From positions 49,251-113,250 of the forward strand of contig JBPOIA010000003.1 of the NCBI GenBank assembly GCA_052034975.1: DNA of 64,000 bases. Direction: 5' to 3'. This DNA comes from Candidatus Moraniibacteriota bacterium (GTDB taxonomy: Bacteria; Patescibacteriota; Minisyncoccia; Moranbacterales; UBA1568). Under the pieces are notes generated by a model. That model saw nothing but the letters and a program-made list of their open reading frames with translations. It ran no database searches and was not told where the DNA came from. Below, piece after piece: positions 7,448 through 58,677 of this stretch. The position numbers and the translations under genes are program-made. The stretch's first letter is position 1. Every line of letters begins with the position of its first letter.

Positions 7448-8014
7448 ATGAATACCCAGGCAATTAAAACAATCTACGAGAAAAAAGCCGTTTCTGGACT
7501 ACAGAAAGAGCTCGGCATCAAGAATGTGATGGCGGTGCCGCGCATTTCGAAAGTCGTCGTGAATGTTGGCGTCGGGAAATTCCTGAAGGACCAGAAACAC
7601 GTCGAAGAAGTGGTGAATTCGCTGGAAGCGATTACCGGACAGAAAGTTGTGATGACGCGCGCGCGCAAAGCGATCGCCGGATTCAAGACTCGCGAAGATT
7701 TGGAAATTGGTGCCCGGACAACGCTGCATGGCACCCGGATGTGGGCGTTTCTTGATCGTTTGTTCCATATCGCATTGCCTCGGGTACGTGATTTTCAAGG
7801 CATCTCCCTGAGCGCCGTCGATCACAGCGGAAACTGCAATATCGGCATCAAGGACCATACGATTTTTCCGGAAATCATTCCTGAGAAAGTCCAGCACATT
7901 TTTAGTTTCCAGGTCAACGTCGTAACGACCGCCAAAAACAGAGAAGAAGGGGCCGCGCTGTTTCGTTTGTTGGGAATGCCGTTTGAAAACAGCGGAAATA
8001 AGCAGGAATCCTAA
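7448..8014 (+). CDS. rplE: 50S ribosomal protein L5
   Basis: LGIKNVMAVPRISKVVVNVGVG..VVMTRARKAIAGFKTRE. Confidence 0.95.
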   Translation: MNTQAIKTIYEKKAVSGLQKELGIKNVMAVPRISKVVVNVGVGKFLKDQKHVEEVVNSLEAITGQKVVMTRARKAIAGFKTREDLEIGARTTLHGTRMWAFLDRLFHIALPRVRDFQGISLSAVDHSGNCNIGIKDHTIFPEIIPEKVQHIFSFQVNVVTTAKNREEGAALFRLLGMPFENSGNKQES

Positions 8015-8031
8015 ACGCGCACAAATAATTT

Positions 8032-8217
8032 ATGTCTAAGACATCCACATTCGCAAGAGCAGAGAAAACCCCGAAATTTTCGACCCGTATTGTCAGACGG
8101 TGTTGGAAATGCGGTCGGAAGCGGGGGTATTTGCGCCGGTATGCCATCTGCCGCATCTGCTTTCGCGAGCTCGCCTCAACCGGCGAGATCCCGGGAGTGA
8201 AGAAGTCTTCCTGGTAA
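8032..8217 (+). CDS. rpsZ: 30S ribosomal protein S14 type Z (zinc-binding)
   Basis: 61 aa with [25 protein letters not shown], a CxxC..CxxC zinc ribbon. Confidence 0.93.
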
Positions 8218-8248
8218 ACGGATATAAGCTAACAGCGAGAGAAGAATT

Positions 8249-57979: not shown

Positions 57980-58051
57980 GCCACCTTAGCTCAGAGGTAG
58001 AGCAGCGGTTTTGTAAACCGTTGGTCCTCGGTTCAAATCCGAGAGGTGGCT
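57980..58051 (+). tRNA. tRNA-Thr (anticodon UGU)
   Basis: Cloverleaf fits: acceptor GCCACCT/AGGTGGC, D-arm GCTC..GAGC, anticodon stem GCGGT/ACCGT with loop TTTGTAA (U33, UGU, A37), T-arm CTCGG-TTCAAAT-CCGAG, discriminator T. No encoded CCA. Confidence 0.85.
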
Positions 58052-58084
58052 CCGAGTGTTGTAAAGAGAAGAGTATTTTGAAAA

Positions 58085-58167
58085 GGGTAGGTGGCGGAGT
58101 GGTCAATCGCAGCTGACTGTAAATCAGCCGACTTCGGTCTACGGGGGTTCGAATCCCTCCCTGCCCA
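58085..58167 (+). tRNA. tRNA-Tyr (anticodon GUA), type II with long variable arm
   Basis: Acceptor GGGTAGG/CCTGCCC (one G-U), anticodon stem GCTGA/TCAGC with loop CTGTAAA, 14-nt variable arm, T-arm GGGGG-TTCGAAT-CCCTC, discriminator A. Confidence 0.85.
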
Positions 58168-58177
58168 CGAGAATAAA

Positions 58178-58219
58178 CTATAAAAGCACCATTACCGGGT
58201 GCTTTTATAGTTTTGTTTT
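58178..58219 (+). terminator. Terminator hairpin after tRNA-Tyr: CTATAAAAGCACC-ATTACCG-GGTGCTTTTATAG + TTTTGTTTTG
   Basis: 13-bp perfect stem plus T-rich tail. A sequence-related hairpin recurs at 58369-58410 after the second copy of the tRNA 3' end. Confidence 0.65.
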
Positions 58220-58243
58220 GAGGGAGGGATTCGAACGGGCAGG
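58220..58243 (+). repeat. Inverted partial copy of tRNA-Tyr T-arm/3' end (GAGGGAGGGATTCGAAC) followed by GGGCAGG, the complement of the tRNA-Tyr 3' acceptor strand
   Basis: Reverse complement GTTCGAATCCCTCCCTC matches tRNA-Tyr 58147-58162 at 16 of 17 positions. Confidence 0.6.
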
Positions 58244-58349
58244 AACGAGTAGCGAGCGAAGGCGAGCTAAACGAGTGTCGACGGATGCGCGTGAGCAAAC
58301 ATTCGTCGCTGCCCCGGGCAACGAAGTCGTCAGCAGACGACGAGGCGAA

Positions 58350-58366
58350 AATCCCTCCCTGCCCAC
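58350..58366 (+). repeat. Direct 17-bp repeat of the tRNA-Tyr 3' end (AATCCCTCCCTGCCCAC)
   Basis: Identical to 58152-58168. Followed, like the tRNA copy, by a related AT-rich terminator hairpin and TTTTGTTTG-AG(G/T)..GGAGGGAT. Confidence 0.6.
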
Positions 58367-58511
58367 AGAAAGTAAAAAGTACCCTGCGGGGTATTTTTTA
58401 CTTTTGTTTGAGTTGGAGGGATGAAAAGGGCGATAGCTAGACTTTTTGTGAAAAAACGTTAGAATAAGAAAAGTCTCAACGAATAGTTGAGGCTCGTATT
58501 TTTGAAAATAA

Positions 58512-58584
58512 GCCGTTGTAGCTCAGCTGGTAGAGCACCACCATGGTAAGGTGGGGGTCACCGGTTCAATCCCGGTCAACGGCT
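58512..58584 (+). tRNA. tRNA-Thr (anticodon GGU)
   Basis: Acceptor GCCGTTG/CAACGGC, D-arm GCTC-AGCTGGTA-GAGC, anticodon stem CCACC/GGTGG with loop ATGGTAA, T-arm ACCGG-TTCAATC-CCGGT, discriminator T. Confidence 0.8.
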
Positions 58585-58677
58585 CAGAAAGAACGGAAAA
58601 TGAAGGTTCAATGTTGACGGAACGACGGTTTTCGCGTACAGTGAAAAAGCTTTGTAAATCGTTTGAAGGTTGGAGTT

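Follow-up and report, generated by a model that had tools for sequence, protein, structure and literature searches.

RtT has been annotated in Escherichia coli for more than 30 years and is mainly known from enterobacteria. A 171-nucleotide (nt) rtT RNA, reportedly described by Bosl and Kersten in 1991, is said to be released from the tyrT transcript by processing, and we know of no function for RtT. The tyrT locus of E. coli K-12 holds four RtT units (133-137 bits with the Rfam model RtT, RF00391), which read as a T-rich tract, GGGGAAGGAT, GAGAAG, the core, GAGT and AATCCTTCCCCCACCACCA. From A58 onward, the final 19 nt of tRNA-Tyr are repeated as the 3' arm; the complementary 5' arm pairs with it in the Rfam consensus. 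Across 5426 complete E. coli genomes the RtT core is present in 1-10 copies per genome, with a median of 3. One repeat unit of the tyrT operon encodes rttR (PMC3318445), and a link between RtT and the stringent response has been suggested (bioRxiv 10.1101/2024.07.17.603846). Here, an element of like design is described between tRNA-Tyr and tRNA-Thr(GGT) in a 64-kb stretch of a Candidatus Moraniibacteriota genome (contig JBPOIA010000003.1; hereafter the window). Positions 58169-58366 are probably one unit of an RtT-like tRNA-trailer module, followed at 58410-58436 by the decayed start of a second.

Anatomy of the Window Element

The last 17 nt of tRNA-Tyr, AATCCCTCCCTGCCCAC (58152-58168, A58 to C74 of the tRNA), occur exactly twice in the window, the second time at 58350-58366 on the same, + strand. 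With up to three mismatches allowed, 0.13 matches are expected by chance and none of 100 shuffles reach two. Each copy is followed by a terminator-like hairpin and T-tract. Hairpin 1 (58175-58213; 58175-58219 with its T-tract) has a 16-bp AT-rich stem with a GC clamp, and hairpin 2 occupies 58368-58405 (58368-58409 with its T-tract). The units 58152-58250 and 58350-58440 align past the 17-mer through hairpin, T-tract and GGAGGGAT, giving about 1.4 tandem units with a period of 198 bp.

Beyond hairpin 1 lies an inverted copy, AGGGAGGGATTCGAAC (58221-58236), whose 16 nt are 100% complementary to tRNA-Tyr at 58147-58162 (tRNA positions 53-68); hairpin 1 and these two stretches together make one long quasi-palindrome. 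The inverted copy forms the 5' arm of the element (58220-58236) and the second direct copy, which starts at A58 and ends in AC, forms the 3' arm (58350-58366). The element proper (58220-58366, about 150 nt) is therefore bounded by a reverse-complement and a direct copy of the tRNA-Tyr 3' end, and the whole unit consists of a hairpin with T-tract, the 5' arm, a GC-rich multi-hairpin core and the 3' arm from A58. The exact direct duplication, the related hairpins, the tandem unit of about 200 bp, the inverted T-arm copy and the GC-rich segment with strong local hairpins had all been noted in a first-pass annotation made from the window alone, and each of these observations stands.

The core between the arms (58237-58349, 113 nt, hereafter type A) was folded by minimum free energy (MFE) and by alignment of five type A copies. 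In it GGGCAG (58237-58242) pairs with CTGCCC (58309-58314) and encloses two hairpins, at 58250-58269 (GAAG loop with flanking tandem G-A) and 58279-58308. The remainder comprises a small hairpin (58311-58319), helix P3 (GTCGTC-AGCA-GACGAC, 58326-58341) and a junction, GAGGCGAA (58342-58349). The hairpins at 58279-58308 and 58326-58341 had been recognized at first pass. In both the MFE fold and the alignment fold GGGAGGGATT (58222-58231) of the 5' arm pairs with AATCCCTCCC (58350-58359) of the 3' arm; the predicted helix, P1, closes a multi-branched fold and leaves the rest of the 3' arm as an overhang. The + strand of 58216-58370, its tRNA-derived arms paired, folds better than shuffled sequence at -63.6 kcal/mol (z = -3.7); for the - strand the value is -56.9 kcal/mol (z = -2.4).

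After hairpin 2 a second module is present as a truncated 5' end, GAGTTGGAGGGATGAAAAGGGCGATAG (58410-58436). This sequence corresponds to the beginning of another core type found in relatives, type F (GGAGGGATGAGAAGGGCGTGAGTAG), and carries a GGAT-GA(G/A)AAG junction that is also present in E. coli RtT.

The direct copy at 58350-58366 runs on as AC-AG and not as ACCA; lacking a following CCA, it was therefore made from gene DNA and not from mature tRNA. Reverse transcription of a mature tRNA was rejected as an origin on this ground, and also because the corresponding copy of a relative (L008, below) includes 9 nt of the gene trailer. Nor is the arrangement an assembly artefact, since an independent assembly (L016) shows it at 93% identity.

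A Family of Modules in Candidatus Moranbacteria

Loci for comparison are labelled here by L-numbers. The relatives found via the neighbouring tsf gene belong to Candidatus Moranbacteria (Patescibacteria; candidate phyla radiation). In 46 Moranbacteria loci, profile searches recovered at least 37 module copies with six core types (A, 5; B, 5; C, 12; D, 1; E, 9; F, 5). The same searches found no core type in 34 loci from other phyla, and the window holds no further copy of any type. All 37 copies lie on the tRNA strand. Modules follow tRNA-Tyr, tRNA-Glu and tRNA-Thr(GGT), and in metagenome contigs tRNA-Gly(TCC) and tRNA-Trp as well; none follows tRNA-Thr(TGT), directly after which comes tRNA-Tyr.

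Throughout the family the arms match the tRNA upstream. The 5' arm starts 47-59 nt after the tRNA and is the complement of the local T-loop and 3' strand over 9-18 exact nt, and the 3' arm is a direct copy of the local tRNA 3' end, exact over 13-20 nt and beginning in the T-loop at or near A58. Arm position and match to the local tRNA are as in the window in 26 other instances. Behind tRNA-Tyr, -Glu, -Gly and -Trp alike, type F cores retain over 90% identity, and both arms change to fit the local tRNA. In L007, L008, L014, L016, L018, L020, L021, L028 and L030 the tRNA-Tyr 3' end recurs as a second direct copy 173-354 nt downstream. These downstream copies carry the local tRNA variant, with G or A at position 69, or CCTTCCCGGCCCA in L028. 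In the window tRNA-Tyr the acceptor stem contains a U4-G69 wobble (GGGTAGG/CCTGCCC), where many relatives form a Watson-Crick pair with A69; either variant is found with and without downstream elements.

Four type A copies are full-length and one is a 3' half: those of the window and L016 (96% core identity), two in L004, one after tRNA-Tyr and one after tRNA-Glu, and the half copy in L006. The Tyr-linked copy of L004 has a hybrid 3' arm, GGAATTCCC joined to TCCCTGCCC, a sequence consistent with a crossover in the T-loop or T-stem. A strict 3'-half pattern found no more type A copies in metagenomes of the Joint Genome Institute, and the only known RNA families at threshold in 12 loci with sibling elements were tRNAs and a group I intron.

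Some elements stand apart from tRNA genes. Solo arrays in L097 (12700-13040) and L095 (1700-1990) have no tRNA gene within 2.5 kb and still end in tRNA-like 3' ends such as AAATCCCTCCCTTTCCGCA. Directly before the 5' arm of one solo element of these arrays is an extended -10-like sequence, TATGGTAGAAT. Alongside the arrays occurs a further mini type, GAAGTTTATGCCC-loop-GGGTAAATCC, which is also found in L002 and L028. A type F core after tRNA-Gly(TCC) is common to L096 (2053-2215) and L098 (222-385). Upstream of the tRNA the two contigs are about 96% identical, and their terminator hairpins and downstream DNA are wholly different. Their junction alleles, GGGGGAATCGAA (the T-loop complement) and GGGGGATGAGAA (the RtT-like form), differ in three adjacent bases. 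In L049, from more distant Patescibacteria, 106-nt tandem repeats follow tRNA-Tyr (7902-8240), each ending in a tRNA 3' end; an inverted arm is not obvious there, and the region is partly N-masked.

Evidence for Selection on an RNA Fold

Type C provides the most extensive fold statistics. Its 10 copies yield an RNAalifold consensus of 46 pairs in which 93.5% of cells are paired. Double changes affect 29 pairs, compared with 12.4 +/- 2.3 in column shuffles (0 of 500 reach 29) and with 5-9 pairs when the partner is slid by 1-3 columns. Read on the + strand, the helices contain 32 G-U and 5 A-C combinations, which therefore indicates the + strand, and RNA rather than duplex DNA, as the constrained molecule.

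Compensatory changes are also seen in types A and F. P3 of type A has three covarying pairs, GTCGTC/GACGAC changing to GCGGTC/GACCGC and GCCATC/GATGGC, and the type A arms covary between Tyr and Glu contexts. In the 3' hairpin of type F, CTCCGCG/CGCGGAG is replaced by CTTTTTG/CAAAAAG around an unchanged TCGGAG loop. The direct copy of L014 has drifted from its tRNA (CTGTCC for CTGCCC) and the 5' strand compensates (GGACAG); arm pairing is therefore kept independently of the tRNA. In this family the fold is kept by compensatory changes on the tRNA-sense strand.

A 68-codon arginine-rich open reading frame (ORF) runs through the window element (58218-58424, +), and a small "protamine-like" ORF (tpr) is annotated inside the E. 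coli RtT unit. The compensatory changes in the hairpins argue that the arginine-rich ORF is a by-product of a GC-rich RNA.

Likeness to RtT

How close is this element to RtT? With Rfam, positions 58208-58368 (+) align end to end with RtT (model positions 1-130) at 14.8 bits (E = 1.4-3), and RtT is the only Rfam family that aligns with the element besides long-hairpin microRNA-type models. No Rfam family, tmRNA included, reaches threshold on either strand of the spacer between tRNA-Tyr and tRNA-Thr(GGT). The type F element of L012 scores 26.7 bits with the RtT model (E = 0.016; gathering score 45). A type F covariance model was also built from one Tyr-linked element with both arms, one Tyr-linked element without the 5' arm and three Glu-linked elements. 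Searched against 66.6 kb of E. coli loci and the window, its only matches were three E. coli RtT repeats, aligned over their whole length and in register, with marginal scores (11-12.5 bits, E = 1-1.8). An RtT-like segment in the E. coli tyrU-glyT spacer was not supported by Rfam.

The design agrees more closely than the scores. The window unit follows tRNA-Tyr on the same strand, with the 198-bp period and about 1.4 units given above; its 3' copy is identical to the tRNA end and starts at A58, as in E. coli; and the helix of GGGAGGGATT and AATCCCTCCC corresponds to the Rfam consensus helix. The window element is called RtT-like in architecture because the cores are not significantly similar, L016 has no RtT match and the score derives in part from the tRNA-Tyr ends. 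Since core similarity is not significant, the likeness could be convergent rather than homologous.

Interpretation

The best reading of the locus is a structured RNA module embedded in a tRNA operon, which spreads and decays by recombination at copies of the tRNA 3' end. The module would be transcribed with the tRNA operon through read-through of a leaky hairpin 1, or in some relatives from its own promoter, and, since its own terminus is a tRNA 3' end, could be freed by the enzymes that process such ends, as is reported for E. coli rtT RNA. In DNA the repeated tRNA ends would serve as recombination points, for unequal crossing-over and for recombination in the T-loop. Such events may give rise to tandem units, delete others (leaving, for example, the 58410-58436 remnant) and carry cores from one tRNA locus to another, and the conserved flanking tRNA genes would let whole spacers pass between lineages. 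Complementarity of the 5' arm, to the tRNA end or to the direct copy, is probably maintained by selection on P1 or by quasi-palindrome template switching across the hairpin.

Several observations weigh against this interpretation. The RtT score of the window element is far below the gathering score of 45 bits, so that it is not an RtT member by score, and that score comes partly from tRNA-Tyr-derived ends common to both. The L016 elements give no RtT match at E <= 5. Core similarity to E. coli RtT is not significant, either with an E. coli profile in nhmmer (best E = 0.78) or by Smith-Waterman comparison of the cores with dinucleotide shuffles (z = -1.6 to 1.6). For type A only five copies are available, including a 3' half, and G-U and A-C combinations number only 8 and 5. 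A terminator-like hairpin separates tRNA-Tyr from the element, and upstream of the element in the window no promoter was detected, so transcription of the window copy is only predicted. The module is absent from many relatives and is therefore dispensable. Finally, a selfish element acting at the DNA level is an alternative, albeit an unlikely one. Of the three options raised in the first-pass annotation (an integration scar, a degenerate convergent tRNA, or a small structured RNA that had replaced tRNA-Gly), the structured RNA fits best, given the compensatory changes and the covariation in the family, shorn of the supposed replacement.

Turnover and Probable Recombination in the Spacer

The spacer between tRNA-Tyr and tRNA-Thr(GGT), 343 nt in the window, is hypervariable across relatives (6 to 2230 nt). 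L008 and L013 are a filled and an empty allele: what follows the second copy in L008 is the whole 87-nt spacer of L013, and the stretch duplicated in L008 is 26 nt, reaching 9 nt into the gene trailer. Compared with L016, the window is 69-77% identical in flanking coding DNA, 93% in hairpin 1 and the element, 97-99% in the Thr(GGT) leader and 97% over 75 nt upstream of the tRNA. After its second copy L016 has about 900 extra bases, made up of a partial module with a third tRNA-end copy and a small gene. This identity pattern and the extra bases fit a process in which whole spacers are exchanged by recombination in the conserved flanking tRNAs and units are gained or lost at the repeated tRNA ends.

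In L004 and L012 a hairpin and the start of an element come straight after tRNA-Tyr, and hairpin 2 of the window with the next 27 nt is homologous to them. Because of this homology, hairpin 2 is probably the original tRNA-Tyr terminator of the lineage, and the lineage probably once had a type F-like unit that is now deleted save for its first 25 nt or so.

Larger changes are also seen at this site. In L007 (6939-7455) and L030 (7843-8397) the orientation of the Thr(GGT)-rpmG-Trp-Glu block relative to tRNA-Tyr is reversed, with breakpoints at the element-bearing ends of tRNA-Tyr and tRNA-Glu. Assemblies end at or just after tRNA-Tyr in L001, L005, L009, L011, L017, L025, L027 and L038. Logan contig L089 matches the window at 100% identity as far as 58148, in the T-loop, and ends after 7 unrelated bases. 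An exact-protein look-up for near-identical strains returned one contig, which stops inside tRNA-Tyr, and no record for the rpmG product. Such contig ends suggest strain-level heterogeneity or a repeat-induced break.

Cargo genes occupy the spacer in some relatives: a signal-peptide protein with no Pfam match in L016 (7173-7832), a Ser_hydrolase and an AAA_33 kinase-like protein in L018 (7132-8432), and a HIT-domain protein in L019 (6977-7423). A group I intron of about 215 nt sits in the anticodon loop of tRNA-Tyr in five relatives (Rfam Intron_gpI, 56.4 bits in L028), and ARAGORN misses the tRNA there on its account. The intron-bearing genes are at 6598-6815 in L015, about 7170-7380 in L042, about 7270-7490 in L020, about 7370-7580 in L030 and 6357-6554 in L028. 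Between tRNA-Thr(TGT) and tRNA-Tyr, L020, L028 and L030 have an ORF of about 200 aa which may encode a homing endonuclease, since it has weak helix-turn-helix matches and a LAGLIDADG-like YYGEGAK motif.

Alternative Explanations

The first-pass annotation had likened the duplicated tRNA end to attL and attR. Under this explanation the locus would be the scar or miniature of an integrase-mobilised element, akin to a cis-mobilizable element (CIME), in which a tyrosine recombinase crossing over in the T-loop inserted DNA with a replacement tRNA 3' end, and later deletion of most of that element left attL and attR 198 bp apart. The flanking direct repeat is indeed of the classical kind for tRNA att sites, running from the T-loop to the tRNA end (17 nt exact in the window), and the filled and empty alleles of L008 and L013, with a 26-nt repeat reaching into the trailer, would follow naturally. 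So would a hotspot with variable cargo genes and tandem units, the many contigs that break at tRNA-Tyr and the inverted downstream block of L007 and L030. Its agent, however, is missing. No integrase or integrase fragment was found in about 55 loci, no recombinase was seen among the variable-spacer ORFs of 13 loci (nine cargo ORFs were scanned with Pfam and none was a recombinase), and inspection of the window ORFs showed no integrase or transposase. No ORF fits into the 181-nt insert between the repeats. A viral origin finds no support in IMG/VR, where four conserved-core patterns returned only chance coding matches or nothing, and no viral contig. What the repeats enclose is a conserved and covarying structure, not decayed cargo. 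A site-specific integrase predicts a single cognate tRNA, whereas core types follow Tyr, Glu, Thr(GGT), Gly and Trp, and one core can stand after all these species with both arms re-matched. The direct repeat is thus explained, and the inverted arm that pairs with it, the single orientation of all copies and the like design of E. coli RtT without an integrase are not; we consider such a scar improbable.

Equally improbable is a non-autonomous DNA element resembling miniature inverted-repeat transposable elements (MITEs) or REPINs, whose hairpin ends a transposase in trans would recognize as single-stranded or cruciform DNA; the conserved structure would then be there for transposition and not for an RNA. 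Inverted ends around a small non-coding core would be expected of it, as would the many copies and types, their presence/absence polymorphism, the very high core identity across diverged genomes and the solo copies away from tRNAs (L095, L097). The ends of a MITE are nevertheless element-specific terminal inverted repeats found in either orientation, and here they change with the neighbouring tRNA while 37 of 37 copies are co-oriented with it. G-U combinations far above A-C on one strand, together with GNRA-type loops, suggest RNA, and no transposase was seen nearby. The scar and the mobile element both explain the direct repeat and the turnover, and both leave the re-matching, the orientation, the G-U bias and the E. 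coli precedent unexplained.

An effect in cis is less probable still. The arm would then extend the terminator hairpin and modulate 3' maturation of tRNA-Tyr or read-through into tRNA-Thr(GGT)-rpmG, with the direct copy as a decoy. The 5' arm does complement the real tRNA over 16 nt and the direct copy over 10-11 nt, it pairs with the tRNA in the MFE structure of the 346-nt read-through transcript, and it lies at a fixed +47 to +59 nt. Many relatives, however, have spacers of 6-90 nt and no such arm, the T-loop complement is replaced by GAGAA in types C and F and in E. coli RtT, no tRNA accompanies the solo copies, and the conserved cores would go unexplained.

A decayed glyT, or another degenerate or convergent tRNA-like pseudogene, would account for T-arm and acceptor fragments on both strands but is refuted. 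Neither ARAGORN nor the Rfam tRNA model detects a tRNA on either strand, even at E <= 10; the fragments copy tRNA-Tyr and not a tRNA-Gly, which this lineage never has here; and the conserved fold is unlike a cloverleaf. Casposon- or CRISPR-like elements, integron attC sites, IS110 bridge RNA and TnpB omega-RNA-plus-guide were considered and set aside for their unfitting anatomy and the lack of a partner gene, as were, for anatomy, a K-turn, a hammerhead or a loop-E at the junction.

Genomic Context

On the + strand of the window the element lies among tRNA-Thr(TGT) (57980-58053; ARAGORN and Rfam), tRNA-Tyr(GTA) (58085-58168; ARAGORN, Rfam tRNA at 59.2 bits, and the sequence itself) and tRNA-Thr(GGT) (58512-58585; ARAGORN), after which come rpmG, tRNA-Trp and tRNA-Glu. 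Upstream of tRNA-Thr(GGT), the interval that begins at 58437 and includes this gene has a promoter-like site (58438-58465) and a leader hairpin. Moranbacteria typically have the order Thr(TGT)-Tyr-Thr(GGT)-rpmG-Trp-Glu, and at none of 18 Moranbacteria loci with adjacent tRNA-Tyr and tRNA-Thr(GGT) is there a tRNA-Gly between the two. The premise that glyT normally sits at this position, and with it the proposal that the element replaced it, therefore falls: the normal order of the lineage has no tRNA-Gly here and only the spacer content varies. ARAGORN and Rfam (RF00005, even at E <= 10) found no tRNA on either strand of 58169-58511.

Significance

An RtT-like design is present in a second, very distant lineage, with several core types, strongly covarying cores and arms that follow five tRNAs. 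Constraint falls on the arm-arm pairing, the junction motifs and the hairpin beside the 3' arm, and concrete mutants and comparisons are therefore available for RtT. For annotation, a duplicate of a tRNA 3' end a few hundred bases downstream is not by itself evidence of an integrated element. The ends of tRNA operons in these reduced genomes are also small-scale recombination hotspots that break assemblies.

More tentatively, modules of the RtT type could be an old and widespread class of tRNA-operon RNA, from Enterobacteria to the candidate phyla radiation, with a closing helix re-templated on the local tRNA; this is possible rather than probable. Were it so, copying or recombination directed by the tRNA end would write both a direct and an inverted copy of its target. 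Alternatively the module would have a tRNA-specific function in trans, the 5' arm pairing with the tRNA 3' strand and the 3' arm mimicking that strand.

Comparison With Known Systems

Like YrlA and Y RNA-like domains, tmRNA and mascRNA, the module borrows a tRNA 3' end, probably for processing. Unlike them, it has no T-loop, D-arm or full acceptor mimic, and it matches no YrlA or tmRNA model. MITEs and REPINs are likewise small, non-coding, hairpin-forming, multi-copy and intergenic; here, however, the ends come from the local tRNA, the orientation is fixed and the constraint is strand-asymmetric and of RNA type. With tRNA att sites and CIMEs the locus has in common a direct tRNA 3'-end repeat from the T-loop, tandem accretion and hotspot behaviour. 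It differs from them in having no recombinase, an insert of 181 nt, a conserved structured module, an inverted arm and a core that several tRNAs share.

The closest system is RtT, which the first-pass annotation did not name. A strong hairpin and T-tract precede the window unit, the gene-encoded CCA of E. coli is absent, and the Moranbacteria modules have at least six core types, five tRNA species and re-matched arms, which were not found described for RtT. The two also have much in common. Both lie directly after tRNA-Tyr on the same strand and repeat with a period of about 180-200 bp (178 bp for the E. coli tyrT-tyrV units), and both end in a direct copy of the tRNA 3' end from A58, of 19 nt in E. 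coli and 17 nt in the window. In each the 5' arm (GGGGAAGGAT in E. coli, GGGAGGGATT in the window) complements this copy to give a closing helix preceded by a T-rich tract, and the GC-rich core forms several hairpins, one of which abuts the 3' arm. The GGAT-GAGAAG junction is common to E. coli RtT, types C and F and the window remnant at 58410-58436, and copy number is polymorphic in E. coli RtT and in the Moranbacteria modules alike.

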